This document shows, one piece after another, positions 35,236 through 52,128 of a stretch of DNA of 64,000 nucleotides. Source of the DNA: Alphaproteobacteria bacterium (GTDB taxonomy: Bacteria; Pseudomonadota; Alphaproteobacteria; Micavibrionales; SZUA-601); contig CBDFFU010000003.1 of the NCBI GenBank assembly GCA_965246875.1, forward strand, positions 199,385 through 263,384, read 5' to 3'. Within the stretch, counting starts at the first letter, position 1. Every line of letters begins with the position of its first letter. A model generated the notes under the pieces. That model worked only from the letters and a program-made list of their open reading frames with translations, was not told where the DNA came from and made no database searches. The position numbers and the translations under genes are program-made.

Positions 35236-36247
35236 TATGGTCCGTATACGATGAGTTTGCCGACACAACATTGGAAATCGTTCCACTCGCCGCAACAACC
35301 GGTGTAAGGACGCGACATGTTGAAGAGCTGGCTGAAATTCTAGCCGCCGATGGATTTTATTACGCAGATGCCAAACCATCCAATCAAGGAACGTTTAAAA
35401 GACGACAAGTGGTTCTCGACCCCGGCGCGGTCATTCAGATGTGCCTTTAAAATAAAAATCTTCAACAAATATGGCTATAAATAATCTGGTTGATAAAATA
35501 GATTAAAGGCCAATATCAGGTAACATGATTGTTCATCCCACCGCGACAGGCTGGAGCATTATTCACCAGCAGGCACATGGCCTTCTAGCGTTTCAGCTAG
35601 CGTTGCACTGGAACCACGATAAACGCCCGGCCAACTGGCCCGAAACGCTGGCCGCTCTGTTGGAGCATGATGACGGGCAAGATCCCTTTACCAAACACAA
35701 TCATATATCAAAAGCCGGCGCGCCACTGCAATTTGTACCCTATTCTATCACTCAGTGTCATCGCATGATTGACATTGCCTTGTATAAGAGTCGCTGGAAT
35801 GCCCTTATGGTTTCACGTCATGCGACGTTTCTGTATAAATCGAGACGAGGAGAAAATAAAGACCTTGACAGTTTTCTGGATAAACAGAAAGAAAATCAAA
35901 AGAAATGGCTCAAAGAAGGTAGTTTTCGCTTGAAAGATGTCGACTACGCTTATGCTTTTCTACAATGGTGTGATGCACTCTCGCTTGTACTCTGCCGTGA
36001 AGAGATTCCACCAGAGGAACGTCAGCTTGAGGTCAGCAAAGGTCCGGACGGAATTCATTACTTCATCCACCAACGCCGCAATGACGAGTCTTTAACTATT
36101 GACCCTTGGCCGTTTGCAACGACCCACTTCGATGTTTACACCGAGACCTACAATTTACAGAAATTGAAGTTCAAAGATGATCACGAACTCAAGAAACTAA
36201 TTTCTACTACGGCACCTACCCAAAAAAAATGGGTTTTTAAGAAATAA
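35236..36247 (+). repeat. about 1-kb direct repeat, copy 1 (partner 61598..62611)
   Basis: Aligned by eye at an offset of 26,364 nt. 35712-36009 is identical to 62076-62373. The flanks show scattered substitutions and small indels. Confidence 0.85.
35525..36247 (+). CDS. conserved hypothetical protein, possibly DUF3891-like (copy 1)
   Basis: 240 aa. The N-terminal GWSIIHQQAHGLLAFQLALHW pattern resembles what I recall of DUF3891 (unverified). It differs from 61889..62611 at 11 of 240 residues. Confidence 0.5.
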   Translation: MIVHPTATGWSIIHQQAHGLLAFQLALHWNHDKRPANWPETLAALLEHDDGQDPFTKHNHISKAGAPLQFVPYSITQCHRMIDIALYKSRWNALMVSRHATFLYKSRRGENKDLDSFLDKQKENQKKWLKEGSFRLKDVDYAYAFLQWCDALSLVLCREEIPPEERQLEVSKGPDGIHYFIHQRRNDESLTIDPWPFATTHFDVYTETYNLQKLKFKDDHELKKLISTTAPTQKKWVFKK

Positions 36248-36409
36248 GCAACCCACCCTTCAAAGCAAAAAATTAATAAACCAGGTTTCTGCATTAAGAA
36301 ATTATGCGCTTCCTCGCAAGCGGGATAGAAGAGATCACAACTGGTCATCATTCCGTTGCAATAAAAATATATTTGAGCCACAATATTATGATTTATGTAT
36401 CCGTCGTCG

Positions 36410-38821
36410 TCATTGTTTCAAAAATTCATACTCGTAAACTTTCAGAGCTATTTTATCGGCAAGCATGCGTAGTGTTTGTCGCAAGTTGCTCATTAACTGC
36501 GTATATTTTTCGTCTGTGCTTTTTGCGTTCATTCGTCCCATATCGTTGCGACCTTGAAAGTATGATTTGATATCATACAAAGCTGCATTTGCGTTAATTA
36601 ATTTTTGTGAATGATAATATTTCCAAAGTTCACGGCCTGCATTAAATACGTTTGTTGCTTCACGTGAAAATTGTAACGCTTTGCCGTTATTTATTTCATT
36701 ACCAAACAAGTTGCCAAAATTTTCAGTCTTCAATTTACCTTTTATGAAGTCGGTCATAAAGTTACTTTCAAACTTTTCTTTGGCGTTTATTTCACTTTCG
36801 ATAAAAGGTATCCAATGATTGACTCCAAATTTCGTTTGGATGTTGTTATTGAATATCGTAAAAGCCAAACAGTCATTTTGAAATTCTTTGTCTAATTTCC
36901 AATTATCGTTTGGACATAAAAATTGATCACGGTCGTTTAGCCAGTTGGCTTCAATTGCCTTACGAACAGAGAAGTACATTGAAACAGGAATCAAGTTGTC
37001 CTTGTTAATCCAAATGCCACGGGGATTAGGTAGTTGTTCTTTTGTGTTTAAAACGTAAACGATATTGTTGTGTTGAAAATCGTTGCCATTTATGCCGTCC
37101 ATAAAGCCAATGTTATCTTCTCTGGTGGCTTTATAAATTGAAATGAATTTGTTGATGTATTGGCTTTTATTTAGTGCGTAAATGCCCTTTATTCCAAGGA
37201 AATTGGCGTTTTTATCGTAAATGTCTGCAATTACACTTGTAAACAATTCTTTGTTGTTTGTATTCCAAATTTTAAAGCCAATTGGAAACTGCCCTTTCAC
37301 GTTATCAAATGTATCTGCTGGTGCTAAAAAGATTTTCTCAAGTTTCGCTTTAAAATGTTCTTTGAGGCTGAGAAAAGCGGAACCTTGCAGAATTTTCAAA
37401 GTTGAAAATTCTGCAAGAATTACACCATTAAATTCTGAGTAAATTCTGATTAGGAATTGAGCAAATAATTCTCTTCCGGCTGTTCCTAATTTTGAACCGT
37501 ATTTAGCATGTATCTTGGTTTGGTTTACTCCAACCTTTCCTTTTTCTGCTTTACTCGATACTTCGGCATAAGGTGGATTAATGTAAATAATTAGCTTTTT
37601 ACGCTTCTCATGGTCATTCAGTATTTCTTGCAAACCTTGTGGAAGTTTTGAAAAATCATCATTCAAAAAATCAAATTGAAAAACGTGTCTCTCCAAAAGA
37701 TTAGCACCGTAATTGATACGGTCGTGCATCACTTTAACGTCTGCTTGGTCTAAGGTGCTCGCCCAAATATTATATTTGTTGCTTAAACCTGCAAGTAGAT
37801 TGCCGGTGCCTGCGGCACAGTCCCAAATGTAGTATTCATCTTGCCAGTTCTCGCCTAAATAATCGGTTAAGTATTTTTGAGAAAGTTCAACCCATTGTCT
37901 TGGCGTAAAAAAAGCTCCTTTTCGTTCTCTGATGTCTTGCGGAACAAGCAAGTCCCTACGTTCAATGATGTAGTTTTGAAACTCCTTAATTGGCGGTCTC
38001 TTATATCGTTTCCAAAACTGCTGATAGGCTTCTTTATTGCGAATACTGATTGTTGCATCAAACATTTGTCTGATGTTCTCTTTCGCTATTTTGTAACCTT
38101 GATTTTGAAAAATTACAAACAGATTATCTCTTATTGATGCGTCATCTTCTATCCCGCTTGTGTCTCGGTCATCAACAAACAAGTCAGCTAAATAAAAATC
38201 GCTGTCTAAAATATTTGCTTTTTTAAGGTCGTCCCAACCCACGTCAATAATGGGTTTTACAATTTCAAGCCAACGCAAATAAATCGGTATGAAATTGTTC
38301 TTATCAATTTTAATTTTGCCGGTCTCTGTTGCTTTGGCAATGTTATTGGTAATAAAATGTTTTAGCTCTTTTTCATCCTGTATGTAGTCATATACATAAC
38401 TGTTTTTGCTCAGATTGGCTTCAATTCTTTCTTTAATGAGTTTGAATTCTTTTGTGTCGTGATTACTTGGCGTTACGTTCCAATTAAAGTCATTAAGATA
38501 GAAAATATCCTGTATGCTAATATAGGGAACGAAAGCAATTTTTTTAAAATCAAATGCTCCCAAAAAGGCTGGGGACAAAGTTTTATCAAAAGTTCGTGCT
38601 TTACCGATTGTCAAAATAAGTTGCACAAACATTGTCGAAATGTCAAAGTCGCCTGTTTTGGCTTCTGCCCAAAGCAAAGGTGTCCTTCCAAAAAGGTTGT
38701 CTTGCTTTGGAAAAACGGTGAAGTCAATATTGCCGATTATTTCTGTCGTATCGAATGATCTGAACCAGTCCACACCAACCTTGTTTTTCAGTTCCTCTTC
38801 TCTGATGTTTTTATATTTCAT
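36410..38821 (-). CDS. single-polypeptide type IIG-like restriction-modification enzyme candidate (N6-adenine methyltransferase core)
   Basis: Contains the SAM motif WDCAAGTGNLL and the catalytic NPPY (IYINPPYAE). The N-terminus has a possible PD-(D/E)xK arrangement (D41...E53-A-K55, LLWAEAK). A long C-terminal region could act as a target-recognition domain. The gene is very AT-rich. Confidence 0.65.
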   Translation of the reverse strand: MKYKNIREEELKNKVGVDWFRSFDTTEIIGNIDFTVFPKQDNLFGRTPLLWAEAKTGDFDISTMFVQLILTIGKARTFDKTLSPAFLGAFDFKKIAFVPYISIQDIFYLNDFNWNVTPSNHDTKEFKLIKERIEANLSKNSYVYDYIQDEKELKHFITNNIAKATETGKIKIDKNNFIPIYLRWLEIVKPIIDVGWDDLKKANILDSDFYLADLFVDDRDTSGIEDDASIRDNLFVIFQNQGYKIAKENIRQMFDATISIRNKEAYQQFWKRYKRPPIKEFQNYIIERRDLLVPQDIRERKGAFFTPRQWVELSQKYLTDYLGENWQDEYYIWDCAAGTGNLLAGLSNKYNIWASTLDQADVKVMHDRINYGANLLERHVFQFDFLNDDFSKLPQGLQEILNDHEKRKKLIIYINPPYAEVSSKAEKGKVGVNQTKIHAKYGSKLGTAGRELFAQFLIRIYSEFNGVILAEFSTLKILQGSAFLSLKEHFKAKLEKIFLAPADTFDNVKGQFPIGFKIWNTNNKELFTSVIADIYDKNANFLGIKGIYALNKSQYINKFISIYKATREDNIGFMDGINGNDFQHNNIVYVLNTKEQLPNPRGIWINKDNLIPVSMYFSVRKAIEANWLNDRDQFLCPNDNWKLDKEFQNDCLAFTIFNNNIQTKFGVNHWIPFIESEINAKEKFESNFMTDFIKGKLKTENFGNLFGNEINNGKALQFSREATNVFNAGRELWKYYHSQKLINANAALYDIKSYFQGRNDMGRMNAKSTDEKYTQLMSNLRQTLRMLADKIALKVYEYEFLKQ

Positions 38822-39130
38822 TTGTCGTCTATCTTCGTCTGTTACAATGCTGTTTTACAATTGGTATTAACGTCTTTGTAAATTTAAAAATCATGTAAAA
38901 TCACAAGAACGTAAAAAAGCGTTTTTGTGGTTTTCCAGACAGGATTTAAAAGATTTTTTCATGGATTTCTATTACTCGTTGATGTGTTAAAGCGTCTAAC
39001 TTGATCTGGTTACTTCCGTTTAGAAAAGTTCAACGGCATCCTCATGAGTGTGGTTTGAAGCAGATTTGTAAAAATCGCGCTGTGTGCGGCATATTTAGCA
39101 GTATTCTCTCAATCTGCGCTTGCTGCAGAC

Positions 39131-39335
39131 TAAATGCCGGTGGATGCAGTCTATCGCGAACTTCTCTCAGGCACAATTCACTGTGTTTCAAGGAATATAC
39201 AGGGAATCTGGGCTATAAAAAGCATTATTTTTCGTTGAGACCCCATTCATATCATTGAAATGAAACAATTTATTTCTTGTAAACAACAGGGAAATTTTAA
39301 ATACTATGAGGGAACATAACGCCACAAACAGGCAG
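39131..39335 (+). repeat. about 200-nt repeated intergenic module with ACAGGGAA-type motifs, copy A
   Basis: The core 39131-39210 matches 54336-54415 at 68 of 80 positions (hand count). The downstream part is collinear but more diverged. Confidence 0.7.
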
Positions 39336-39604
39336 TTTTCTTCAGCAATCTAATAAGCACTCTGATCTGTCCTAAGGGTATCGATCAGATAAACCTCAAG
39401 CTTCAGGTGTTGTACAAATTGATTTGAAATTCGGCCAACCACCTAATTTCTGACGCCGTAAAATGATAACGTTTTGTATTGATATGCCAGTGTCCATTTA
39501 GCCCTAAATCATCCTAGAAAACGAAGACATACCTATTAACAAATTAATTATTGCGTTGATTATGTTATTATGATACCCTATATTGATTTAATTGTGGAGT
39601 AGCC

Positions 39605-40723
39605 ATGACAGACACATCTAAGCTGAAAGTGGCAGACTTGAAAAAACTGCGTGAAGAGCGGAACGATCAGCGCTTGATTGAACTGGGCGAAGCTTGGCTT
39701 GAGCAAAATCCGCTGACGTCCGATCTGTTGTCCCGCAAAGAGCCAAATGCGATTTTGTCTGAGATTGGCAAGGCAATGCACAGAACCGGCGATAAGAAAC
39801 GTGGTTATGATGTACTTTATAATGCGCTTGCGGTGGTTCCCAACGCCATTCTGCATTCGGCCCTTAGCCATTTGAACAAGGCTGACATAAATTATCCGCA
39901 GGCGCTAAGTCATGCGGAGGCGGCTTTGCCATTCGAGCCAGATAACGTTCACAGCATCCGAAATTTGGCAGATATCCATAAGCGAATGGGGAATTTTGGC
40001 GAAGCAAAATCATATTATCAGCTGTCTTTGCATAAAAGCCGTGGATCGCGTGACATCGAGACCGCGACCAACGGCCTGGCGCAGATTCATCTGGTGCAAG
40101 GCGATCATCAAAAGGCTAGGGAATATTACAGCCTTCATGCCGACAGAAACATCGTTTCATTATGCGGATTAGCCAATACATGCCTTATCGATGGCGAACT
40201 GGATGAAGCTGAAAAACTTTATAAACAACCTTTGGCAAACGGCAGCCGGGTTGCCAAACGCGGATTGGCGATGTGTTACATCGCGCAGGGCAAGCTGGAC
40301 GACGCACAAAAGCTCTTGGCTGGCGTCGATAAAAACGATACACAAATTCAAGATTATTACCTTGATGCTGCACTGGCGATGAAACAGGGCGATTTCAAAA
40401 CGGCGCGTGAGGATATTTTGTCTGCTATACAAGAATTCCCTGTTACGAAAACCACTTTTCCCTATGTACGGACGTTTGCCGAAGCTGGTCTTATCGACCC
40501 TCCTATGTATGAAGTTCTAGCCGAAATGATGGGTTATAAAACCATCAATCCGATCCAGCCCAAACCGCTCGACCAAGTTTTAAATGATTTCAAATCACAC
40601 CTGGTCCTGATAACCGCTCAAGATGAAGAGCCAACGGCCCCCATTTCCGCGATTTATACTGGTAATTTCGAGACGCCGGTCAACAAACAGACGCAGCGCG
40701 TGACCCAGCAGCGGAGAAAGTGA
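39605..40723 (+). CDS. TPR-repeat protein
   Basis: 372 aa with repeated about 34-aa units showing the A/G/Y spacing typical of TPR (e.g. GNFGEAKSYYQLSL, GDHQKAREYYSL, GELDEAEKLYKQPL, GKLDDAQKLL). Confidence 0.6.
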   Translation: MTDTSKLKVADLKKLREERNDQRLIELGEAWLEQNPLTSDLLSRKEPNAILSEIGKAMHRTGDKKRGYDVLYNALAVVPNAILHSALSHLNKADINYPQALSHAEAALPFEPDNVHSIRNLADIHKRMGNFGEAKSYYQLSLHKSRGSRDIETATNGLAQIHLVQGDHQKAREYYSLHADRNIVSLCGLANTCLIDGELDEAEKLYKQPLANGSRVAKRGLAMCYIAQGKLDDAQKLLAGVDKNDTQIQDYYLDAALAMKQGDFKTAREDILSAIQEFPVTKTTFPYVRTFAEAGLIDPPMYEVLAEMMGYKTINPIQPKPLDQVLNDFKSHLVLITAQDEEPTAPISAIYTGNFETPVNKQTQRVTQQRRK

Positions 40724-41112
40724 CGATGGCTGTTAATAGAGCTATAACCGGATTTCCACAGCATTTTTTATATTTGATGCCGCTGTTACAAATTGGATAA
40801 GGCTGATTTACAGGTACTTTCATGATCAACGTGATATATCATGCCCAACCTCCAGCTTCCAAACCCTTTGGCTGAGACAAGGCCCTTAAACCCCCTAAAG
40901 GGGGCGGGTCTCGATGGTTGGAGTTTAAGCTGATGGCTACGAATGCTGCGGAATTGCGGAGGTTATCTGCATATTGTCTCTGTTGGCGACTAAAACAAAG
41001 ACTAAATGGCGGTGTGCGCCGAACTGGGTAATAAATATTCTGTTGAGAGCAAAACTGGGGTAGATCAATGGCGGCGAATGTCGCCTTTGATTCATCTGCA
41101 TTAGTGATGGGT

Positions 41113-42552
41113 TCATTTTTGATCATTTTGCGATTCCTCTATTTTGGCGATTTTCAGCTCGTCAAACTTCATAGTGGCCGCATTATAGCTACCCAGCGCC
41201 TTGAACATGTACATGTTTGACAAGATGTTCTTGACGCGTGCTTCAGCTGTCTTTTCTTCACGGCTGTTGAGGAGAAACAGGTTGCTCGTGCCATTGGCGA
41301 GCAATTGGCGTTCGGCACTTTGCATTTTTTCGGCAAGGCCCACTTCCTGATTGCTTAAGGCTAGGTTCTCTCTGTTTAGCCTAAGATCGGCTGCCAAATT
41401 ATGTAGCTCCGCGCGGATCGTGTCGGTTGTGAGGCGCTGCTCGTTTTCAAGCTGTTGCAACTGGGCTTTGGCTGCAGACGTTTGGCCTTGTCCCAGATTG
41501 CGCTGCAATGGCAACGAGAATTTGATGATGCCAATGGTTTCGGTACCGTCCAGGCGGCGCAAACCGTCACCCTGATCACGCGCCACTTCGACACCTAAAT
41601 CGACTTTAGGCAGCAGGCTGTTCTCGCCCAGGCGGACGCGGTTGCGCTGCTGTTGCATATTGACCTGAATGGCCTTCAGTTCTGGACGGGTTTCGATGAC
41701 CTTGGCGATATCCGCTTCTACAGACTGCTCAGTCGATACAGCCGCCGTTGGAAACTTGCCAGGCAGATTCTGGGCATCAGGCACGACCGGCTCTCCTGCA
41801 TCATCGCGCCAGAACAGGGATAGATCGTTCGAACGTTTGATGAAATCACGGCGCGCTTCGTTCAGCATGGCTTTGCGCTTGACTAGATTTTGCTCATTTT
41901 CTGTCGCTATAATCTGCGGCGCATCACCCGCCTTGATACGTGATAGCAGATTGCGCTGGCGTTCCTGGGCCAAGGCCAGGAGATCCTCATACACTTTCAA
42001 GATGCGGCCAGCCGCGAGCCATTCCGCATAAATGCTCTGCGCTTTCATCTGAGTCGCCAGCCTTGTCAGTAGCACATCGATATCTACTAAATTTTGTTCA
42101 AAGCCCGCATCCTGCAACTTGAAACGCCGGTCATCGATATCGCGGTTGCGCAACAACGAAAAGATAACACCCACACTGATCTCGCCGCCATTCTTGGTGC
42201 GCAATTCATCGTTATAAATTGGAAAATCGCCCTGTCCGTTACGATACCCGGTATAAACCTCGCCGCTAAATGGAGCAAAAGGCTTAACCAGCCGTCCGGC
42301 CGCATAATCGCCATCATAATAGCCACTGCCACGCAGCTTGGCATCGCCGTCTAGCCTGAGGTCGAACGCACCCCGCGCTTCCTGAGATTTAGCGGCGGCT
42401 GCGTCCTGTTTGGCAATGGCAGCTTTGACCTTTGGATAATGGGCGCTCGATGAAATCAGTACGTCTTTCAGACGCAGTTCCGTGGCCTGTACTGACTCCG
42501 CGCAAAGCATGGCAAGGCAAGCAATCAAGAAAATAGCAACTTTATTTCTCAT
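41113..42552 (-). CDS. TolC-family outer-membrane factor
   Basis: 479 aa with a signal peptide and a duplicated OEP-type coiled-coil/beta-barrel repeat pattern. The start overlaps the HlyD stop by 11 nt. Confidence 0.8.
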   Translation of the reverse strand: MRNKVAIFLIACLAMLCAESVQATELRLKDVLISSSAHYPKVKAAIAKQDAAAAKSQEARGAFDLRLDGDAKLRGSGYYDGDYAAGRLVKPFAPFSGEVYTGYRNGQGDFPIYNDELRTKNGGEISVGVIFSLLRNRDIDDRRFKLQDAGFEQNLVDIDVLLTRLATQMKAQSIYAEWLAAGRILKVYEDLLALAQERQRNLLSRIKAGDAPQIIATENEQNLVKRKAMLNEARRDFIKRSNDLSLFWRDDAGEPVVPDAQNLPGKFPTAAVSTEQSVEADIAKVIETRPELKAIQVNMQQQRNRVRLGENSLLPKVDLGVEVARDQGDGLRRLDGTETIGIIKFSLPLQRNLGQGQTSAAKAQLQQLENEQRLTTDTIRAELHNLAADLRLNRENLALSNQEVGLAEKMQSAERQLLANGTSNLFLLNSREEKTAEARVKNILSNMYMFKALGSYNAATMKFDELKIAKIEESQNDQK

Positions 42553-43609
42553 CGCGCTTATCCACTGTGTAATCCTGCAAGGACATATAATTGTTTTCAG
42601 TGCCTTTGGGTGGGAGTGGCGGGAAGCTGTTCAACTGCCGCCACCATTCATAGCCGACATTGACTGTGTTCAGCAAAACCCAGCCACGGGCCCGGGCGCC
42701 GAAACGCAAGAAATTTTCGTTTGGCCATTTCTCAGCCGGATCTTGCACGATCAAAACGCGAAACTTGCCATTTGCAGAGATGGATGGATCGCTGGTTTTG
42801 ACAATGCCGCCAAAGCTACCGACACTGATTGATGGCCAGCCACTAAACTGCACTGCGGGCCAGCCTTCAAACTGTAACCTTACTTTGGCTCCAGGTTTAA
42901 TGAGAGGGGCATCCAGACCCTTAATGTAAAGTTCGACGGCCGGAACCGTTCCCGATGGAATAAAGTTTGCAACAACATCGCCTTCCTTGATAAAAGTCGC
43001 TGCATCGCCGCTGCGCATCTGCACGATGGTGCCATCAGCAGGTGCTTTCACCAGCTGGGTATCTTGTCGGGAACGATTGGTCTGGACTTTAGCCAATTCG
43101 GCAGCGGCAGCCGCCTGCTTGGACAAGTATTCATTGTAGTTGATCTTGGCCTTTTCTAAATCGTGGCGTGATGCCAGTCCCTGCTTAAACATCGCTTCAC
43201 GGCGGGTATAATCCAGCTTTGCCGTTTCAGCTGCTGCGCGGGCAACATCAGCTTTCTGACGGCTAGCATCCAATTCCAGTTCCAGCCGCTCGACATAGTT
43301 TGGATCATTGTCGACAATCTCTAATAGCAGATCATCTTTTTTAACAACGCTGCCTTCATGCACATGCCACTCCTTGATCCGGCCTTTGACCGGTGCAGAA
43401 ATGTTCTGTGGCCTGTCACTGGGATGAAACGTTGTGACCACACCATCACCGGAAGCCGTTTGCACCCAGGGCGTAAGCAACAGGAACGCTGTCAGGAAGG
43501 CAAAAGCAAACATCAGCATCCAAGCCAAGACACGCAATGGGCGCGGGATATTGATATTATTTAAGCTCGTAAATGCACTGGTATAATTGGATTTGAAAAT
43601 ATCGCTCAT
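42542..43609 (-). CDS. HlyD-family membrane fusion protein
   Basis: N-terminal TM anchor, a lipoyl-like hairpin (APVKGRIKEWHVHEGSVVKKDDLL), a coiled coil and a beta-barrel. It overlaps the ABC stop by 4 nt. Confidence 0.85.
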   Translation of the reverse strand: MSDIFKSNYTSAFTSLNNINIPRPLRVLAWMLMFAFAFLTAFLLLTPWVQTASGDGVVTTFHPSDRPQNISAPVKGRIKEWHVHEGSVVKKDDLLLEIVDNDPNYVERLELELDASRQKADVARAAAETAKLDYTRREAMFKQGLASRHDLEKAKINYNEYLSKQAAAAAELAKVQTNRSRQDTQLVKAPADGTIVQMRSGDAATFIKEGDVVANFIPSGTVPAVELYIKGLDAPLIKPGAKVRLQFEGWPAVQFSGWPSISVGSFGGIVKTSDPSISANGKFRVLIVQDPAEKWPNENFLRFGARARGWVLLNTVNVGYEWWRQLNSFPPLPPKGTENNYMSLQDYTVDKRDEK

Positions 43610-45330
43610 GAATTTTGCTCCGCCATCTGTGCATCTTCATGTAGTTTAAGCAAAGGTGCGTTTGCAAAACTATGAGTCATCACCTTGTCCATGATGAGAT
43701 AATGGTCAAAGAAGTTCCATTCCTTGCGGTTGGTGAAACATATCAACATTGTGTCGTGTTGCTGACAAAGCGACTGCATGATGCGCTTGCGTATTTGGAA
43801 CGGCACAGCATCGAAAATCTCGGTGACTATCAGTACAGATGGCTTTGCCGCCAGCACAGCGGCTAGTTTTAGACGAATGACTTCATCATATAATAAGGGA
43901 TAGCCCGATGGTACAATGTGCGTATTTAATCTCTGCGGCAATGCATTGATGACGGCATTTAGCTCAACCATCTGCAAGACAGAAACAATATTGGCCTGTG
44001 TCACGTTTGGCGCGTAGAGATCGAAGAACCGTTTGATACTGCCTTCAACGACCGATACGCTGTCAACGGACAGAATATGGTTACGCAACTGATGCAAATC
44101 ATAGTCATTCAGATCTTGCTCACCGATCAGAACACGGCCTTGTGACGGTATGCGGTGACCTTTGATCAAATCCAAAAAGAGCTTAGAACCGGCAGCTTCG
44201 CTACTTTTGGCAAGCACTTTGCTGTTTCCAGCCAGCATACAATCAAACGAAAACTGATGGCCGCGATAAGGCAAAATGACGTTCTCAAAATTCACGTCAG
44301 GAGAAGTGGTTATATCGAATGAAATAATGCCCGAATTGGTTTCCAGCGGCAGCTGGAAGAAGTAATTCAGTTTGTGCAGATTGGCACAAAGATCGTAATA
44401 GATGCGCGAGTAATAGCCAAGTTTGGACGTGCTGTAGAATATTGCTGACATGATAAGTTCCGCGCCCACCAATTGCCCCAAGCTTAGCTGGTTGCGTGCA
44501 ACCAGCACGCCGCCAAGACCCAGCAATCCGGCACTTGCCACGCAATACAAAGCCAGAAACGCAATGTTTTGACCAAAAGTAGTTCTAAAATACGACTTTT
44601 TACGAGAGAGATAATTTGCAGTCTGATTATCGGTTTCTTGCAGTGCGTAAGTGATAGCACGCTCAGATTTGAATGTTGGATTAACACGAGCAATTTCCTC
44701 GAGCCACTGTACAAGAGCATATTTGCTGTCTGATAGGGCGATAGCCTGTTTAATAGCTCGTTTCGACCACATGTGCCAGATCAGGAATAAAGATCCGGCA
44801 AACAGCATATTATAAACAAACAGAAACGGGTGATAAAAGGAAACAACAATCAAACCAATAATAGCTTGAAGTGCGATAAAAAAGCCTTCTGTCAGCAAGG
44901 CGGGCACATTCTTTTGCACATGCATGATCTCGAAGAAACGATTAACCAATTCAGCGCGGTTAATGCCGTCCATATGAGGCTGATCAGTATGTGTTAGGTG
45001 GAGCGCAGCTTCCGAAGCAATTCTCGCTAAAAAACGACGCTGAAATAGCTCCATCGCATAATCTCGACAGGCGATTAAAGTAGCTGAAATCAACAAAACA
45101 ACGAATAGTAGAACCGCCAGTAAAATAATAAACGGGGTGAGTGTTGTATTAACGACCGTGTTCAGCAAGGCCTGAACAGCAATGGGCACGGCCAATGTCA
45201 AAATACCAATACCAATGCCATAGATTGCTGTAAGGATGAAAAACGTGCGGTCTGGCGTAAGAAGACTACGTGTAATATCGTCTCTGCCAACAGCACTCGG
45301 ATAGACGGATGAATTAATCATGATCAACAT
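43606..45330 (-). CDS. ABC exporter-like protein with degenerate nucleotide-binding domain
   Basis: The N-terminal half is a 6-TM ABC exporter-type membrane domain. The C-terminal half aligns to ABC ATPase domains, but Walker A is KSSEAAGSK, the signature is SGYP, Walker B is VLIVTE and the H-loop position reads FTNR. Confidence 0.75.
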   Translation of the reverse strand: MLIMINSSVYPSAVGRDDITRSLLTPDRTFFILTAIYGIGIGILTLAVPIAVQALLNTVVNTTLTPFIILLAVLLFVVLLISATLIACRDYAMELFQRRFLARIASEAALHLTHTDQPHMDGINRAELVNRFFEIMHVQKNVPALLTEGFFIALQAIIGLIVVSFYHPFLFVYNMLFAGSLFLIWHMWSKRAIKQAIALSDSKYALVQWLEEIARVNPTFKSERAITYALQETDNQTANYLSRKKSYFRTTFGQNIAFLALYCVASAGLLGLGGVLVARNQLSLGQLVGAELIMSAIFYSTSKLGYYSRIYYDLCANLHKLNYFFQLPLETNSGIISFDITTSPDVNFENVILPYRGHQFSFDCMLAGNSKVLAKSSEAAGSKLFLDLIKGHRIPSQGRVLIGEQDLNDYDLHQLRNHILSVDSVSVVEGSIKRFFDLYAPNVTQANIVSVLQMVELNAVINALPQRLNTHIVPSGYPLLYDEVIRLKLAAVLAAKPSVLIVTEIFDAVPFQIRKRIMQSLCQQHDTMLICFTNRKEWNFFDHYLIMDKVMTHSFANAPLLKLHEDAQMAEQNS

Positions 45331-46174
45331 GCTCTAGACTATGAATGATATGATCTGCCAACATCAATGCGGCAGGCGAAAGATTTTCACGTTTTAACAA
45401 TGCAATCTCAGCATCAACTAGACTTGGAAGTTTCATTTCGGTTTTTACTGTATGCAATCCATCCGGAACCATATTTGATGGCAGCACCGTAATACCTAAA
45501 CCCGCTTTTACGGCTGCAATTGTACCTGCCAAGCTTGGGCTCGTATAGGAAATGCGCCAAGTCCTTTTGGCTCGGTCGAGCGCTGCAAGGGCTCTTGCAC
45601 GATAAATACACGGCTGTGGAGATAAAACCAAAGCTAAAGGTTTTTCAGGTTGGTACTGGTCGGCCGCCACCCATATGAGAGGCTCGCGCCAGACTTTTGT
45701 TCCCCCTTTGACGCGTTGAGGATCACGTTTAATCAGCGCTAGATCATATTTACCTTGGGCAAAATCCTCAACAAGATTGAGCGTAAGGTCGCATTTAACA
45801 TTAAGCTGCACGCGCGGATGATGCAGTTTGAACGTTGCTAAAACATGCGGCAAATAATGTGTCGCGAAATCTTCCGGCGTGCCAAGCCGGATTTCACCCT
45901 CTACATCTGGCTCCTTAATACGACTGAACGCCTCCCATTGCAGCTGAATAATTCTTTTGGCATAGCCAAAGAAAATCTCGCCTTGTTCCGTCAGTACAAC
46001 TTTACGGCTCGTCCGGTCGAAAAGCTCACAGCCTAGACCTTCTTCCAATTTCTTAATTTGCAGGCTTAAAGCAGATTGCGTTCGTCCAACACTATTTGCA
46101 GCATGCGTAAAGTTGCCGCTTTCCGCGATAGCGATAAAGCTTTTCAGCAAAAACGTGTCGACATTAAAAGGCAT
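45314..46174 (-). CDS. LysR-family transcriptional regulator
   Basis: N-terminal wHTH (FIAIAESGNFTHAANSVGRTQSALSLQIKKLE) plus a LysR substrate-binding domain. Its 3' end overlaps the ABC gene start by 17 nt on the same strand. Confidence 0.9.
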   Translation of the reverse strand: MPFNVDTFLLKSFIAIAESGNFTHAANSVGRTQSALSLQIKKLEEGLGCELFDRTSRKVVLTEQGEIFFGYAKRIIQLQWEAFSRIKEPDVEGEIRLGTPEDFATHYLPHVLATFKLHHPRVQLNVKCDLTLNLVEDFAQGKYDLALIKRDPQRVKGGTKVWREPLIWVAADQYQPEKPLALVLSPQPCIYRARALAALDRAKRTWRISYTSPSLAGTIAAVKAGLGITVLPSNMVPDGLHTVKTEMKLPSLVDAEIALLKRENLSPAALMLADHIIHSLEHVDHD

Positions 46175-46201
46175 CGCGAAACATTAATTCCCACTTTAAA
46201 A

Positions 46202-46218
46202 GATAGTGAATAACTATC
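46202..46218. promoter_or_regulatory. LysR-type T-N11-A dyad (GATAG-N7-CTATC)
   Basis: A perfect 5-bp inverted repeat lying 28-44 nt upstream of the lysR ATG. Confidence 0.4.
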
Positions 46219-46504
46219 ACCTTAAATAATAAAACAGATATTAATCAGATTTTATAGTTTTGAAGCGTTAATAAGCAAATGAAACCGGTATTGAGCAAAC
46301 CGCACTTTTTCTGAATATCATTCATACTGAAGACAAACATGTTGTTTATCAATCCTGACAATACACTACGGCAAATAAATAAGCCCTCATTTGTATGACA
46401 ATGTGAATTGATTGTATCAGGCATATGAGGTTTTTGAACTTAACGAAAACTACCAATTTAAGAGACTTTTATTATGTATTTTTACTTGGCGTTGTAGTGA
46501 AGCA

Positions 46505-48604
46505 ATGGGAATAGCCCCTCTACCCACAAATGAAGAAAAACGTCTTCATACATTGCAGCAATATAATCTTTTGGACACATTACCAGAAGCGGACTATGAC
46601 CGAATTACAAAATTGGCTTCAATCATTTGTAATACCCCAATTTCACTGGTGACTTTAATTGATCACAACAGGCAATGGTTTAAAGCAAAAGTGGGCTTAA
46701 ATATCAGCGAAACGACGCGAGACATTGCATTTTGTGCACATGCGATACTGGCACCAAATGAGGTTTTGATAGTAAACGATGCACTCAATGATGCTCGTTT
46801 TGAAAATAACCCGCTGGTTCAAACTGATCTGAAAATACGATTCTACGCAGGTGTTCCACTATTAGTCCAATCCGGGGACGCATTGGGAACATTGTGTGTG
46901 ATTGATACGAAACCTCGAGATTTATCGTCTCAACAAATCGAGTCGTTACAAATTTTAGCTGCACAGGTTGTTTCCTTAATTGAAACACGGAAGAATACAA
47001 AATTTATAAATGAACTTTCCCAGTCTCTACAAGAAGCGAACAATTTTTCAGAACTTATGTTAGAAAGCAATCCTGATTTCGTATTCGTTAAAAATTCAGA
47101 GTTTCGGATTGTGCGTGCTAATAAGTCATTCATAGGACTATATCCTGAAAACATGCGAGACTCTATTATTGGTACGACAACTGTAGAGCAATATTCTGCA
47201 GCAGAAGCCAAGCTATTCTTAGAAAAAGATCGAATTGCTTTGGTAAACGGTAGTTCTGAAGCATACGAGTCAATTAAGTTTTCTGATGGCAACATACATC
47301 ATTTATTCACAAAAAAAGTTCGCTTTACAGACGCAAATGGTGCACAATTTATACTTGGTATTGCACGCGATATAAGCGAAATTGTTAATGTGCAAGCACA
47401 ACTCAAAGATTACAGCGTGGAGCTTGAGAATAGCTCGAAAGAATTACAGATCGCCAAAAACAAATCAGATGCTGCGAATAGTGCTAAAAGTGAATTTCTA
47501 TCGACAATGAGTCACGAAATAAGAACACCCTTGAATGGTATAATTGGAATGAGCAATCTTATTTCACAAACAAGTCTTGACGAAGCACAAAAGCATTATG
47601 TCGGATCAATTCAAAAATCATCTGCTCTTCTTTTAGAACTCGTAAATGATATTTTAGATATTTCAAAAATCGAAGCTGGCAAACTTACATTGGATCACAA
47701 TCCTCTGAATTTTCATAGCTTGTGCTCTAGTGTCATGTTAAACCTAAGTCCTGAAGCAATTAGAAAAAATCTTGTTTTTACTTTAAATTATCATGATAAC
47801 ATGCCCCAAATTTTGATAGGTGATGCATTAAAGCTTAAGCAAATTCTCTTCAATCTATGCGGTAATGCAATTAAATTCACAGAAACAGGACATGTTTCTG
47901 TCGAAATTATACCAAAAACGTTCGAAAAAAATAAAGTGAGTTTTGAGGTCGTTATTAAAGACACAGGTATTGGCATAGCAAAGTCAAAACTAAAAGAGAT
48001 TTTTGAAATTTATAAACAAGCACACTCTATCATTAGTCAGCAATATGAGGGAACCGGACTTGGCTTGCCAATCAGTATGGACTTCGCCCGTGCTATGGGC
48101 GGCAATATTCAGGTTAAAAGCCGGTTGAAGGCTGGATCCGAATTTACATTGTCTCTAACTATGGGCTACAAAAAACGATCGCCTAGAAAACCTGTAAATG
48201 ATTCAATTTTGTCCAAAGCCAAATACGGCAATTTTGAACATATAGATATTTTAATTGTCGAAGATAATTCTATCAATGCAGAAATAATCGAAAAAATGCT
48301 GCTTCACCACAAATTTAATTTGACTAAAGCATATAATGGTCAAGAAGCCATCAGCGCAATAGCAAAGAAGCAGCCTCATATAATACTTATGGATTGTCAG
48401 ATGCCAGTCTTAGACGGTTATGAGACCACAAAAATCATTAAAGCTGATAAGAATTTTAATCGTATCCCAATTATTGCTATGACCGCCTATGGCTTAAAAT
48501 CCGACAGAGAAAAGTGTTTGGCAGCGGGTATGGATGACTATATTAGTAAGCCAATTGACGAAACAAAGCTTTTACTTATTTTAAAAAAATGGTTAAAAAT
48601 TTAA
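46505..48604 (+). CDS. hybrid sensor histidine kinase (GAF-PAS-HisKA-HATPase-REC)
   Basis: GAF-like N-terminus (LPTNEEKRL...), a PAS region, the H-box [11 protein letters not shown] boxes, and a C-terminal receiver (ILIVEDN...[11 protein letters not shown]...KP). The track ORF begins at 46412 and a Met lies at 46505. Confidence 0.9.
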
Positions 48605-48722
48605 CATCTGCAGTATGCAGCAAAACAATAAATTAAAAATTCTAATGCTTCGTAATACTTGACGGTTATAACATATCACCTTGTCGGATTTTTATACATC
48701 AATCCATTTCTACTTATAACTT

Positions 48723-49073
48723 TTATGATTTCAAATACAGTTCTCTAAGAGAGCAACAAGATTGATTTAGCATACTTTCCAAATTCGATATTATTTCAAG
48801 GATACTTAAGGAGCTATATTCGTTTCGTTCAATTTTATTGAGATACAGCGAAATTCCAACAAGTCCAAGCTCCAGACTCGAGGAGCGCAACTTGTGCACA
48901 CACTTATAAAATGAAACAGTATCATTTTTTGCAGCTGCCAGACGACTAAGTCTAAGAAAATCGGCAGCTTGATTATAAAACTTATCAATAAGATTAGAAT
49001 AATCTTCACCAAATAACTGTTGCAAATAAGAAATTCTTTTAAGGTCAAAAAGCTTATTGTCTAACTTTTCCAT
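48723..49073 (-). CDS. Hpt phosphotransfer protein (LuxU-like size and motif)
   Basis: 116 aa. Contains HKLRSSSLELG, an Hpt-type H-x-x-K/R-S/G-S motif, at about residue 60. Confidence 0.7.
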   Translation of the reverse strand: MEKLDNKLFDLKRISYLQQLFGEDYSNLIDKFYNQAADFLRLSRLAAAKNDTVSFYKCVHKLRSSSLELGLVGISLYLNKIERNEYSSLSILEIISNLESMLNQSCCSLRELYLKS

Positions 49074-49170
49074 GTCGCGCCCTTTATTGTTAAATTAAAA
49101 TTGTTAAACTATGAGCTATTTATAGTCACAAACAGTGGCAGTCATTTGAGTGTCTATTATTACGATTAGC

Positions 49171-50538
49171 TTATTGCTTGCGATAAATATTAGATTGACT
49201 GGTTTTTAGCAATCTGGCAGCTTCGCTTACATTCCCATTACAGACACGTATTGCGTCTTTGATGATTAATTTTTCAAATATTTTCAGAGGCATTATATTT
49301 TCAGGCGTTTGAAAAATCTCTTTGCCTTCAATAAAATTAAAAGATTCAAATTTATCTTTTGCCGACAAGTTATCATTCACTAAATGAGATAGCATCTCAC
49401 CCGTTATACAAATACCGTCGTTCATAATTACAGCACGCCGTATACAGTTTTCAAGTTCGCGTACATTACCAGGCCATCGATGGCTTTTTAGTAACTTTCG
49501 CGCAGCATTATCAAAAACCTTAAAACTCTTCTTTTCTTCTTTACTACATTTTTCAAGAAAATGATCGCCAAGCTGTATAATATCATCTTCACGTTGACGT
49601 AATGGCGGTAACTGGATTGGTATCACAGCAAGACGGTAATACAAATCTTCTCGCAATACATTATTTTTAATGGCATGGATAGGGTCGCGGTTAGTCGCAC
49701 AAACAAACCTAATATTCGCTTGAAGCGTTTTATTGGAACCAACAGGTGTATACTCTCCCGTTTGAATAAAGCGCAGTAATTTTGATTGTAAGGCTATTGG
49801 CATTTCTGCTAACTCATCTAAAAATAATGTTCCGTTGTGAGCACGTTTCGCTGCACCTTCACGATCATTAATCGCGCCTGTAAAAGCGCCCTTTACATGG
49901 CCAAAAACTTCACTTTCTAATAAATCAGCTGGTATAGCCGCGCAGTTGATTGATATCAGATTTTCATTTCGCCTTAAGCTTTGAATATGAATTGCATGCG
50001 CTGCAAGTTCTTTACCGGTACCATTCTCACCTGTGATCATCACTGACGCATTTGATTGCGCAGCACTTTCGATAATATTATAGACTGACTTCATCTCTTG
50101 TGAGCCTCCAATAAAATTACAGAAGCTTGTCCGATTGGTTCTCTCATAGTTATTGACGATTTTATTAAGTTTTCTATTGTTGAAAATGTTATTGAGCGTA
50201 ATATTTAATCGATCTTCATCAATAGGCTTTGAAATAAAATCAACTGCTCCCATTTGAATGGCGGCTATTGCATTATTGATACTCGTTTTGCTGGTAATCA
50301 CAACAACGTCACACGGTGCGCGCATAATTTTTATATCTTTTAAAACATCCAGCCCATTTCCATCTGGAAGTTCTAAGTCTAATAAGATGACATCTGGATT
50401 ATCACGTCTAATAACGGTAAGTGCATCTTCGGCAGTCTGTGCGATTTTACACATATAACCACCTTTAGTGGCAATCTTCTGATAAATCATAGCTGTTGGC
50501 AAAGCATCTTCAACAATTAACACCGTCTGAATGGTCAT
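49171..50538 (-). CDS. sigma-54-dependent response regulator (REC-AAA+-HTH), LuxO-like
   Basis: Receiver with DLELPDG. AAA+ domain with GENGTGKE and GAFTGA. Strings I associate with LuxO are present (LLRFIQTG, RFVCATNRDP, GAINDREGAA..GTLFLDELAEM). C-terminal HTH reads ...SQSNIYRK. Confidence 0.85.
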   Translation of the reverse strand: MTIQTVLIVEDALPTAMIYQKIATKGGYMCKIAQTAEDALTVIRRDNPDVILLDLELPDGNGLDVLKDIKIMRAPCDVVVITSKTSINNAIAAIQMGAVDFISKPIDEDRLNITLNNIFNNRKLNKIVNNYERTNRTSFCNFIGGSQEMKSVYNIIESAAQSNASVMITGENGTGKELAAHAIHIQSLRRNENLISINCAAIPADLLESEVFGHVKGAFTGAINDREGAAKRAHNGTLFLDELAEMPIALQSKLLRFIQTGEYTPVGSNKTLQANIRFVCATNRDPIHAIKNNVLREDLYYRLAVIPIQLPPLRQREDDIIQLGDHFLEKCSKEEKKSFKVFDNAARKLLKSHRWPGNVRELENCIRRAVIMNDGICITGEMLSHLVNDNLSAKDKFESFNFIEGKEIFQTPENIMPLKIFEKLIIKDAIRVCNGNVSEAARLLKTSQSNIYRKQ

Positions 50539-50697
50539 GATAGAGAAGCTTTCTAAATTATGTCATTTTGAATATATTCGCAATTTGATTGTCACAAAGA
50601 AAAATTAAATTCCGTTTAAGAAATTATTATTGCAATGTAAAACAATCTATATGTTAAAAATCATGTACTTATAAGAATATCACCGCTTTTTCAAATC

Positions 50698-50713
50698 TGG
50701 CACAGTCTTCGCA
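50698..50713 (+). promoter_or_regulatory. sigma-54 promoter (TGGCAC-N5-TCGCA, GG-N10-GC)
   Basis: GG at 50699-50700 and GC at 50711-50712 have exactly 10 nt between them. The site lies 56 nt upstream of the flagellin ATG and 160 nt from the divergent enhancer-binding-protein (EBP) gene. Confidence 0.65.
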
Positions 50714-50768
50714 ATATGCTAAGCGAGCCAAGTATGGCTTTTAATGACCCAGAACAGGAGACTATCTC

Positions 50769-51596
50769 ATGCTAAATTCAATTCACACAAATTCAGGCGC
50801 CATGATTGCATTGCAGGCTCTGAACAATACAAATTCTGATCTTGAAAAAGTTCAAAAACGCATCTCAACCGGTTTTCGTGTTGCCGACAGCTATGATGAT
50901 GGCGCAAGCTTTGCAGTTGCGCAGGGCTTACGTTCGACCAATAAAGGCCTTGAGGCTGTCGACGAACGTCTTGGCAATACAAAAGGCCTATTATCTTTAG
51001 CGCAAGATGGCTTGACAGCAGTCTCAGACACACTTGGCAGTGCGCGCAAAGTGTTAGCGAAACTGTCTGATGCTAGTTTGAGTGCAACCGAACGTACACA
51101 ATATAATTCAGATTATACAGCCCTTCGCAATGAAGTATCCAACACAGTCAACCAATCGTCGTTCAATGGCACTAACATTCTTTTAGGTGCTGCAACAACC
51201 AACGTTTTATTCAATGCAAGTGGTGGTTCATTTGCTTTGGTTGGTCAAGATGCACTGGGAGCCGCATTTACTGCAGGTCTTCCAGCCACCCCTCCTGCGA
51301 CGGCAGCGGCAGCAGCAACATTGATTGCATCAGGCGGCGCGTTTACAACTTATGAAACGGGCGTTGGATCTTCTTTGTCGACGATCGGCGGCTACTCACG
51401 TTCCATCGATAATCAGAAGAAATTCGTTGCTTCTTTATCAGATGCAAACGTTGAAGGAATAGGCTCAATCGTCGATGCTGATCTGGCAAAAGATTCTGCT
51501 CGACTGCAATCGCTGCAAATTCGCCAGCAGCTTGGAACACAAGCTTTGAGCGTTGCTAATCAAGCCCCAAGTGCAATTGTTAGCCTGTTTAGATAG
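50769..51596 (+). CDS. flagellin (short alphaproteobacterial type)
   Basis: 275 aa with conserved N-terminal (MLNSIHTNSGAMIALQALN) and C-terminal (LQSLQIRQQLGTQALSVANQAPSAIVSLFR) flagellin helices. Confidence 0.9.
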   Translation: MLNSIHTNSGAMIALQALNNTNSDLEKVQKRISTGFRVADSYDDGASFAVAQGLRSTNKGLEAVDERLGNTKGLLSLAQDGLTAVSDTLGSARKVLAKLSDASLSATERTQYNSDYTALRNEVSNTVNQSSFNGTNILLGAATTNVLFNASGGSFALVGQDALGAAFTAGLPATPPATAAAAATLIASGGAFTTYETGVGSSLSTIGGYSRSIDNQKKFVASLSDANVEGIGSIVDADLAKDSARLQSLQIRQQLGTQALSVANQAPSAIVSLFR

Positions 51597-51615
51597 TCTC
51601 TATACTTTAGTCTAG

Positions 51616-51647
51616 AAATCCCACCCCGATATGAGGTGGGATTTTTC
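51616..51647 (+). terminator. rho-independent terminator after flagellin
   Basis: AAATCCCACC (51616-25) pairs with GGTGGGATTT (51635-44) and is followed by a T run. Confidence 0.8.
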
Positions 51648-52128
51648 TATATAATGTGAAAATGTTGACAAATACTAGTACTCTGATTTTGATTGATTTC
51701 GCTAATAAATAAGCCGAGTTGCCGTAGCGTTGGTTTGAAATGCTTATTAGCTTAAATATAAAATCCTATAGTTCGGTCAAAGTGGATGGAACTTAGCTGG
51801 GATGCGATAAACTGCTTTTTTAACATCACAAGCTGATCGATGGTATCTATTAACATGCCTGAAAACTATTACTGAATTTATTATTTGATTATCCGGCCAT
51901 ATTTATGTGGGTAAATCACGATGGCGCGTACCATAGCTAATGAATTAGGCTCTTTATCCACCCCTGCTTCAAACGCTGTTTCTAATGCGATCTTGATCAA
52001 GCGGGCACTTGTTATAACCTCTCTCTTCGCATCAAAATCATGGGAGATTGAAATAATTGCGTGCAATTTTTTCAATAATTTCGCTGTCTGCCGCCATTTC
52101 TGTGCCTTTCTTATTACTGGATTTCAGT

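Follow-up and report, generated by a model that had tools for sequence, protein, structure and literature searches.

A LysR-linked tripartite exporter operon whose sole ABC-fold subunit lacks the canonical ATP-binding motifs: evidence for a probably ATP-independent family

The 64-kb stretch of alphaproteobacterial DNA considered here (contig CBDFFU010000003.1; hereafter the window) carries, at positions 41113-46218 and entirely on the minus strand, four genes that encode a LysR-type regulator, a protein with the fold of a type-I ATP-binding cassette (ABC) exporter, a periplasmic adaptor of the membrane fusion protein (MFP) kind and a TolC-like outer-membrane factor (OMF). The central observation is that the canonical motifs of the nucleotide-binding domain (NBD) are missing not only from this ABC-like protein but from all 108 aligned members of its family, degeneracy being in fact what defines the family. 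Read from its sequence, the operon is a functional member of a large family of tripartite envelope-spanning exporters, here with the LysR gene as the first, overlapping cistron, and its pseudo-ABC protein would be incapable of binding or hydrolyzing ATP in the canonical manner. Because every ATP-binding motif is lost and some relatives have deleted the NBD altogether, the pump is probably ATP-independent; we regard an ATP-independent family of tripartite exporters, under LysR control in this genome, as the best reading and as a reasonably probable one. An earlier note on this DNA had named a tripartite system not driven by ATP as one of three possibilities, and the existence of natural variants without an NBD makes it the best supported of them.

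The compactness of the locus is as that note described it, with adjoining reading frames overlapping by 17 nt (LysR/ABC), 4 nt (ABC/MFP) and 11 nt (MFP/OMF), although the first of these overlaps shrinks to 8 nt if the ABC-like protein starts at its second ATG, as it does in the database gene call (P0001, 571 aa).

The degenerate nucleotide-binding domain

A search of the ABC-like protein of the window against 5.8 billion proteins returned about 87 clusters of equal length at 32-80% identity. Motif frequencies were tabulated over 108 aligned family members, and the register of the motifs was set both by HMMER alignment to ABCB1 from the PDB and by MAFFT alignment with relatives that keep GxGKS, the two alignments being in agreement and the motif coordinates being confirmed via translation. 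The exporter membrane domain that had been proposed was recovered by the ABC_membrane profile (PF00664, 28.4 bits against a cut-off of 28) and as six long helices in the AlphaFold2 (AF2) model. Alignment of the NBD to ABC_tran (PF00005), which the earlier note had suggested as a check, gave 16 bits, below the cut-off of 25, and this match misses Walker A because it begins only at profile position 27.

The losses previously listed hold in register, with one correction of place. The Walker A equivalent, KSSEAAGSK, has no Lys in position, S382 standing there in the HMMER and the MAFFT alignment alike, and alignment also bears out the replacement of the Walker B Asp by Thr (LIVTE) and of the H-loop His by Asn (CFTNR). 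The signature is degenerate as well, whereas the segment first taken for it, PSGYP (residues 474-478), lies five residues upstream of the actual equivalent, LLYDE (Table 1); a replacement of the Q-loop Gln by D423 is a further loss that had gone unmentioned. Neither the HMMER alignment to PDB chains nor the MAFFT alignment to Walker-A-keeping relatives places a canonical Lys, Asp, His or Gln in register, and no canonical Lys, Glu or His was found hidden elsewhere in the sequence, nor random decay among the orthologues.

Family-wide, the region of Walker A is hypervariable and mostly glycine-free, except for a basic residue at position 383 (R/K383, 92/108). The pattern GxxxxGK[ST] occurs in 0 of the 87 nearest homologue clusters, and SGG[QE] in 0 of 120. 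The position of the Walker B Asp is occupied by Ser (35 of the 108 members), Thr (31), Asn (26) or Gly (14) and by Asp in none; Asn takes the H-loop position in 62/108, His falling outside the six commonest residues there, and the A-loop aromatic is not conserved, Tyr being present in just 25/108. A different set of residues is fixed in the family, comprising, besides R/K383, the residues K390, R416, D423, G476-x-P478-L479, E483 (96/108), K488 (101/108), D507 and F532-[TS]533-N534-R535. A basic residue at 383 goes together with an acidic residue at 483 in 109 sequences, versus Ser/Thr with Gln in 66, a coupling that is confounded by phylogeny.

The pseudo-NBD retains the ABC fold and the interface to the membrane domain. 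The AF2 model has a mean predicted local distance difference test (pLDDT) score of 84.9, with values of 85-94 over residues 346-556 of the NBD and mostly 80-95 over the helices of the membrane domain; Foldseek aligns the protein over its full length, NBD included, to TM287/288, TmrAB, HlyB, ComA and PCAT1 (550-590 columns, template modelling score ~0.7), and HMMER aligns residues 371-566 to the NBDs of ABCB1. All four reading frames of the operon are intact, and their lengths agree with those of orthologues. The ratio of nonsynonymous to synonymous substitution rates (dN/dS, omega), estimated for 53 within-family pairs with the transmembrane domain (TMD) and the NBD taken separately, lies between 0.04 and 0.37 for the NBD (typically ~0.1) and between 0.01 and 0.18 for the TMD. 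These closer within-family pairs were used because dS is saturated against the nearest orthologues; between the window and the orthologous locus L086, dN is 0.12 in the TMD and 0.21 in the NBD. The membrane domain is the most conserved part of the protein, with 57 positions conserved at 90% or more. The examination of orthologous operons for purifying selection that had been recommended thus gives an NBD under constraint, its degenerate motifs being shared throughout the family.

Relatives with and without a nucleotide-binding domain

At least 480 relatives were confirmed in a scan of GTDB species genomes, and a profile search of 1.84 billion cluster representatives yielded 3162 proteins at E ≤ 1e-30. 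The best 80 loci of the genome scan, taken for synteny, span Sphingomonadales, Caulobacterales, Kordiimonas, Alteromonadaceae, Xanthomonas (four species), Woeseiaceae, Halieaceae, Pseudohongiella, Myxococcota and others, and are mostly alpha- and gammaproteobacterial. Among these 80 species genomes the ABC-MFP-OMF trio is present in every complete locus but L007, where the OMF was not matched, the other exceptions being loci that end at a contig edge; it is likewise present in the closest orthologous loci, L086-L088, and the adaptor and OMF of the window are 84% and 73% identical to their L086 counterparts. Fifteen sphingomonad plasmids carry the trio, among them pNL2 of Novosphingobium aromaticivorans (SARO_RS19820-19810). 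In a metagenomic locus (L005:11698-12768), whose ABC-like protein is 71% identical to that of the window, two or three open reading frames (ORFs) take the place of the single adaptor gene, which could reflect a frameshift, an assembly error or local decay.

The surroundings of the trio vary between loci, and all-against-all ORF clustering over 84 loci disclosed no conserved substrate or accessory gene besides LysR, the other large ORF clusters having been discarded as shadow ORFs that lie within the trio coordinates in other frames or on the other strand. Nor was any substrate-like gene seen beside the operon in the window, as had been stated before. Full-text literature searches turned up no account of the family, its RefSeq locus tags or its protein accessions. 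While the components are of known kinds, an ABC-fold subunit without an ATP site, or without an NBD, in a TolC system is undescribed.

Outside the focal family lies a larger related clade of proteins of 690-790 aa with an unassigned N-terminal extension of ~180 aa. Among 66 long representatives of this sister clade, Walker A is kept in 47, Walker B ends in DE in 20 and in DG in 26, and the H-loop His survives in 11; the signature reads LSxGQ and the residue of the Q-loop is usually Arg. Two sister loci that keep Walker A, L089 (708-aa P0090) and L090 (562-aa P0102), possess a single ABC gene followed by MFP and OMF. The focal family thus stands at the end point of a stepwise loss of catalytic residues among related tripartite systems, and the relatives as a whole form a series that leads from a near-canonical NBD, through an NBD in which Walker A and the Walker B Asp alone survive, to the pseudo-NBD and lastly to a fusion without any NBD.

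In these fusions, exemplified by P0047 (694 aa) and P0114 (659 aa), a short linker connects the membrane domain in frame with the adaptor. At least 21 diverged fusion clusters of 658-700 aa share the order TMD, linker of 10-25 aa, MFP; 19 of them were found with P0047 as the query (42-52% identity at 93-97% coverage), the identity to P0047 over all the clusters being put at 41-50%; the contigs reach up to 2.3 Mb, and a comparison of the fusion clusters with the window NBD gave no match. At both loci examined the fusion gene is followed by an orthologue of the window OMF gene (47% and 38% identity). The 57 most conserved TMD residues are largely retained (52 in P0047, 47 in P0114), and both proteins have lost K221 and S222, which belong to the NBD-contacting coupling helix 2. 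For P0047, AF2 predicts six transmembrane (TM) helices followed by a disordered linker, then a seventh TM helix, and finally an adaptor whose hairpin helices measure 35-40 residues, a topology consistent with that expected of a periplasmic adaptor. The NBD is, then, dispensable in some lineages.

Energy source and alternative readings

We propose that no ATP cycle in the pseudo-ABC subunit powers transport and that membrane domain, adaptor and outer-membrane channel would constitute the working core, because the diverged relatives have deleted the NBD and fused the TMD to the adaptor. In the proteins that have it, the pseudo-NBD would play a structural or regulatory part and may dimerize via direct salt bridges at the former ATP site, and the coupled basic 383/acidic 483 substitutions may replace ATP as the glue of that interface. 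The operon would be induced through LysR and its pump driven by the membrane potential, the proton-motive force (PMF) or a substrate gradient. Efflux of small molecules is the most likely task, favored because LysR genes have been recruited repeatedly, the adaptor is of the efflux type and no substrate gene is linked. The more specific proposition of a new TolC-dependent class, in which a type-I ABC fold without ATP cycle and with a dispensable, salt-bridged pseudo-NBD, either vestigial or serving regulatory dimerization, works as a secondary transporter or gated conduit, seems to us about evenly balanced between being right and being wrong.

Several observations weigh against an ATP-independent exporter. 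The conserved basic residue R/K383 stands just one position past the site of the Walker A Lys, and together with K390, K488 and R535 it could form a non-canonical site for an anion or nucleotide. The fusions come mostly from metagenome assemblies, P0047 being drawn from ENA ERZ25038477 and Logan ERR14146745, possibly one sample, and a neighbor-joining tree of TMDs puts the fusions in five groups without bootstrap support. Just upstream of LysR and on the same strand, five Xanthomonas loci encode a canonical type-I exporter of 605 aa, and another canonical exporter adjoins the OMF gene of L046; these could be lineage-specific partners or a coincidence. The search for partners covered the loci and the window. 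As for the substrate, the guess at small molecules draws solely on the three circumstances given above for efflux. Finally, a protonatable TMD residue specific to the family was sought by comparison with the Walker-A-keeping clade and none was found, the differences concerning mostly aromatic and small residues; it may be speculated that an anionic substrate, moved by electrogenic uniport on the membrane potential, would need no such residue.

The alternative that retains ATP hydrolysis is an obligate heteromer, energized by a canonical half-transporter, or by a free NBD in the case of the fusions, encoded elsewhere. This possibility, raised by the earlier note, has been weakened and now appears unlikely to us. 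Degenerate NBDs are indeed best known from heterodimeric exporters, whose degenerate site continues to bind ATP and in every case has a consensus site beside it (PMC7756269), and unlinked ATPases have been proposed for other tripartite systems, e.g. Helicobacter pylori HP1486-1489 (PMC9570263). The latter was also considered as a relative and set aside, being an unrelated ABC-2-type pump (PMC9570263). The canonical exporters that adjoin the Xanthomonas operons and the L046 OMF point in the same direction as these precedents. Candidate partners were searched for by regular expressions for Walker A and LSGGQ in all frames of the window (ORFs of at least 100 codons, stop to stop) and within 8 kb at 86 loci. 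No ORF in the 64-kb window joins the two motifs, in keeping with the claim that the cluster holds no second ABC gene, and one within 8 kb was encountered at 13/86 loci only, forming a heterogeneous set (UvrA, RecN-like, ABC-2 type, Xanthomonas exporter); the window and 78/84 loci contain just one ABC gene, and across the 84 loci no type-I exporter is conserved near the trio. The two genes of known heterodimeric exporters, as a matter of general knowledge, are adjacent to each other. Moreover, if a subunit has neither Walker A nor signature, one composite site is disabled and the other impaired, so that even a heterodimer would be left without a canonical composite site, unlike every known case; the sister clade, with its partly degenerate NBDs, also has one ABC gene per operon, and the fusions have lost the coupling-helix residues through which an NBD would be contacted.

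A little less likely still is that the pseudo-NBD binds a nucleotide, phosphate or an anionic metabolite via R/K383, K390, R416, K488 and R535 and gates transport without hydrolysis, much as ABC domains serve gating or regulation in CFTR or SUR. The family-specific charges do lie exactly at former nucleotide contacts, D507 is invariant, the NBD is under purifying selection, and the sister clade, which keeps Walker A and the Walker B Asp and often lacks the catalytic Glu and His, suggests a binding-only stage; but a P-loop region so variable and poor in glycine, an A-loop Tyr in less than a quarter of the members and the dispensability of the domain in at least 21 fusion lineages speak against ligand gating, and the 383/483 coupling, confounded as it is, fits a ligand-free salt bridge equally well. 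That the assembly does not transport at all and is instead a structural or signaling bridge across the envelope, e.g. an anchor for the outer-membrane channel, we judge to be distinctly improbable. Neither a substrate gene nor an identifiable energy source turned up, and the most conserved residues cluster where TM1, TM3-4 and TM5-6 reach the periplasm, the place expected for the adaptor; on the other hand, conservation is strong over all of the six-helix domain and its cytoplasmic extensions (mean 0.63), the adaptor and the OMF belong to the efflux type, and the repeated recruitment of different LysR-type regulators is typical of substrate-induced efflux pumps. Decay of a type I secretion or ABC efflux system, the third of the original possibilities, can draw on the loss of all catalytic motifs, on an ABC_tran score below the cut-off and on the split adaptor of L005, yet it has been refuted and retains a negligible chance, because the genes are intact and of orthologue-matching length, omega is ~0.1 in both domains, the family residues are fixed, the predicted fold is confident and the trio is kept in at least 80 species.

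Regulation, surroundings and comparison with known systems

Table 1. Coordinates of the features discussed. Positions refer to the window unless a locus is given.
Feature	Position	Strand	Remark
LysR-type regulator	45314-46174	-	286 aa; first cistron; HTH_1 77 bits, LysR_substrate 106 bits
Pseudo-ABC protein	43606-45330	-	574 aa; ABC type-I exporter fold
Membrane domain, residues 1-330	44341-45330	-	six-helix type-I exporter TMD
Pseudo-NBD, residues 331-574	43606-44340	-	fold retained, catalytic motifs gone
Periplasmic adaptor (MFP)	42542-43609	-	355 aa; HlyD_3, Biotin_lipoyl_2, HlyD_D23
TolC-like OMF	41113-42552	-	479 aa; signal peptide; OEP 81 bits in two stretches
Dyad GATAG-N7-CTATC	46202-46218		perfect; 28-44 nt 5' of the lysR ATG; candidate LysR operator (see text)
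Walker A equivalent, KSSEAAGSK	44182-44208	-	S382 in the Lys position; no glycine-rich loop
Q-loop equivalent, D423	44062-44064	-	Gln to Asp; Asp in 101/108 members
LSGGQ equivalent, LLYDE (residues 479-483)	43882-43896	-	family consensus G-x-P-L-x-x-x-E
Walker B equivalent, LIVTE	43819-43833	-	Asp to Thr, Glu kept; by alignment
Walker B and D-loop segment	43810-43833	-	D-loop Asp D507 invariant (108/108)
H-loop equivalent, CFTNR	43726-43740	-	His to Asn (N534); family consensus F-[TS]-N-R
Sister-clade long-form proteins			P0090, P0098, P0115, P0293-P0384
Fusion genes	L093:2253-4337; L095:4289-6268		proteins P0047, P0114, P0385-P0403
Xanthomonas canonical exporter	L058:5045-6862; also L061, L067, L071, L076		PF00664 168 bits, PF00005 114 bits
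Canonical exporter beside the OMF of L046	L046:12153-14213		weighs against an ATP-independent exporter

The regulator has LrhA as its nearest named model, at 163 bits against a cut-off of 530. A LysR-type gene is the only recurrent neighbor of the trio, occurring at 25 of the 84 loci, co-directionally upstream in 14 (window included), divergently in 7 and downstream in 4. Given that it is co-directional in 13 other loci, this placement recurs; of the earlier description of LysR as an unusually placed first cistron, the overlapping position stands and the uniqueness does not. It is the overlap with the ABC start that is peculiar to the window. At L086-L088 there is no upstream LysR gene. Adjacent LysR genes score mostly 25-65 bits against that of the window and hence belong to different subfamilies, its orthologues being those of L037 and L040 (~295 bits), both divergent.

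The dyad GATAG-N7-CTATC is present upstream of lysR as reported and fits the LysR-type T-N11-A box, with a single exact match in the window; it is not significant on its own, since one or more matches with up to one mismatch appear in 53 of 100 shuffled versions of the window, and it is not recognizably conserved upstream of the LysR orthologues in L037 and L040, which makes it no more than a candidate LysR operator. The divergent intergenic regions of these two loci (L037:3645-3659 and L040:7827-7841) share another dyad, GCTGCC-N3-GGCAGC. Scans for promoters and terminators gave counts no higher than in shuffled sequence, and a search of the minus strand 3' of the OMF found no terminator-like site.

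The adaptor of the window comprises an N-terminal membrane anchor, lipoyl and beta-barrel domains and a short alpha-hairpin, and its scores against the NCBIfam models RND_mfp (80.7 bits) and type_I_hlyD (57.7 bits) are both under the cut-off. Its C-terminal region, unmatched by the Pfam models here, carries the Trp-rich family-specific motifs FEGWP..QFSGWP and WWRQLNSFPP. Across the alignment these read LQFEGWPxVQFSGWP and GYExWRQLNxFPP, and they are invariant in the TMD-adaptor fusions too; they may contact the membrane domain at its conserved periplasmic YHP and TM1 loops.

Downstream of the operon, a 95-aa ORF (40839-41126, minus strand) overlaps the OMF stop by 14 nt and is featureless and probably non-coding. 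A SEC-C-like metal-binding motif (PICNSGIKYKKCCGNP) is present in a 49-aa ORF (40680-40829, minus strand) that shares 44 nt with the 3' end of a convergent TPR gene; this ORF may encode a small SEC-C protein or be a remnant. The operon is bordered by two stretches of low GC content, 36000-40000 and 46000-52000 (0.35-0.40 versus ~0.50 elsewhere), one of which encodes a protein of 803 aa that has an NPPY methyltransferase motif but is matched by no Pfam model, and the other a GAF-PAS hybrid kinase, a 116-aa Hpt-like ORF (48723-49073), a sigma-54 activator and a flagellin gene. Farther away, a hybrid histidine kinase (57834-59486, minus strand) has an N-terminal ETR1_N, ethylene-receptor-like membrane domain (113 bits); its neighbor at 59589-61541 is another hybrid kinase, rich in PAS domains. 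ClpA, also encoded in the window, finds its best named relatives (67-85% identity) in alphaproteobacterial metagenome-assembled genomes and Rhodospirillales-like genera, and the host is accordingly taken to be an unclassified alphaproteobacterium.

ATP-powered alternating access is the defining property of ABC exporters, and to our knowledge a degenerate ABC site has so far been seen solely as the silent member of an asymmetric pair. Here is a family, kept in at least 80 species, that is under purifying selection although its sole ABC-fold subunit has no ATP site. If the ATP-independent reading is true, the membrane fold of type-I exporters can use another energy source or serve as a gated conduit, and tripartite TolC systems would gain a new class of inner-membrane partner beside ABC, RND, MFS and PET; the chances that the mechanism is new in this sense are, in our estimate, about equal either way. 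With the graded series within the clade, contributions of the NBD other than catalysis can be dissected, and members occur in genetically tractable hosts, such as the pNL2-bearing N. aromaticivorans DSM 12444 and Xanthomonas arboricola. The current annotation of the family genes, "ABC transporter ATP-binding protein", is probably wrong.

Among known systems, HlyB, ComA and PCAT1 are the best matches in sequence (phmmer, for HlyB and ComA) and in fold (Foldseek), and the architecture of HlyB-HlyD-TolC and of the PCAT1 and ComA type, namely a type-I-fold inner-membrane homodimer with a single-anchor adaptor and a TolC-like channel, is shared. HlyB and the peptidase-containing transporters have an N-terminal extension, as the sister clade does; the window protein, in contrast, lacks both the ATP-binding motifs and an N-terminal domain of the C39 or C39-like kind, its operon has no linked RTX or GG-leader substrate gene, and its adaptor, unlike HlyD, is short, the hairpin helices of the related fusion model measuring ~35-40 residues. 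Accordingly low are the scores against the NCBIfam bacteriocin and type I secretion system models, which for the ABC-like protein reach 57-88 bits against cut-offs of 500-850; the secretion models stay below their cut-offs throughout (TIGR01846, 57 versus 725; TIGR01842, 43 versus 510; TIGR01843, 58 versus 209).

The heterodimeric exporters TM287/288, TmrAB, BmrCD and LmrCD share the fold, TM287/288 being the top Foldseek match, and the concept of a non-catalytic NBD; they differ in keeping Walker A, in binding ATP at the degenerate site and in always keeping one consensus site (PMC7756269), and they are encoded by adjacent gene pairs. The window has one gene without P-loop or signature, and a homodimer of its product would therefore have zero canonical sites. 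MacAB-TolC is likewise a tripartite efflux system with an inner component of the ABC superfamily, and the adaptor scores 39.5 bits against the MacA model, but MacB has a type VII fold, a large periplasmic domain and an active ATPase, whereas the window protein is of type I with an ATPase that appears dead. CFTR and SUR provide a parallel for an ABC exporter fold that serves something other than ATP-driven pumping; unlike the window protein, they bind ATP at both sites (CFTR hydrolyzing it at one), are eukaryotic full-length proteins and belong to no tripartite conduit.

In its manner of working, the system would resemble the PMF-driven AaeAB and EmrAB-TolC pumps more than protein secretion of the HlyB type. 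Those pumps use no ATP, as is proposed here, and have a membrane-anchored adaptor that works with TolC, the AaeR-AaeXAB system has a LysR-type regulator next to its pump genes, and the adaptor of the window weakly matches the AaeA (30.8 bits) and EmrA (36.6 bits) models. Their inner-membrane parts, of the PET/FUSC or MFS kind, are unrelated to an ABC exporter fold, and the likeness is hence one of working mode rather than of membership.

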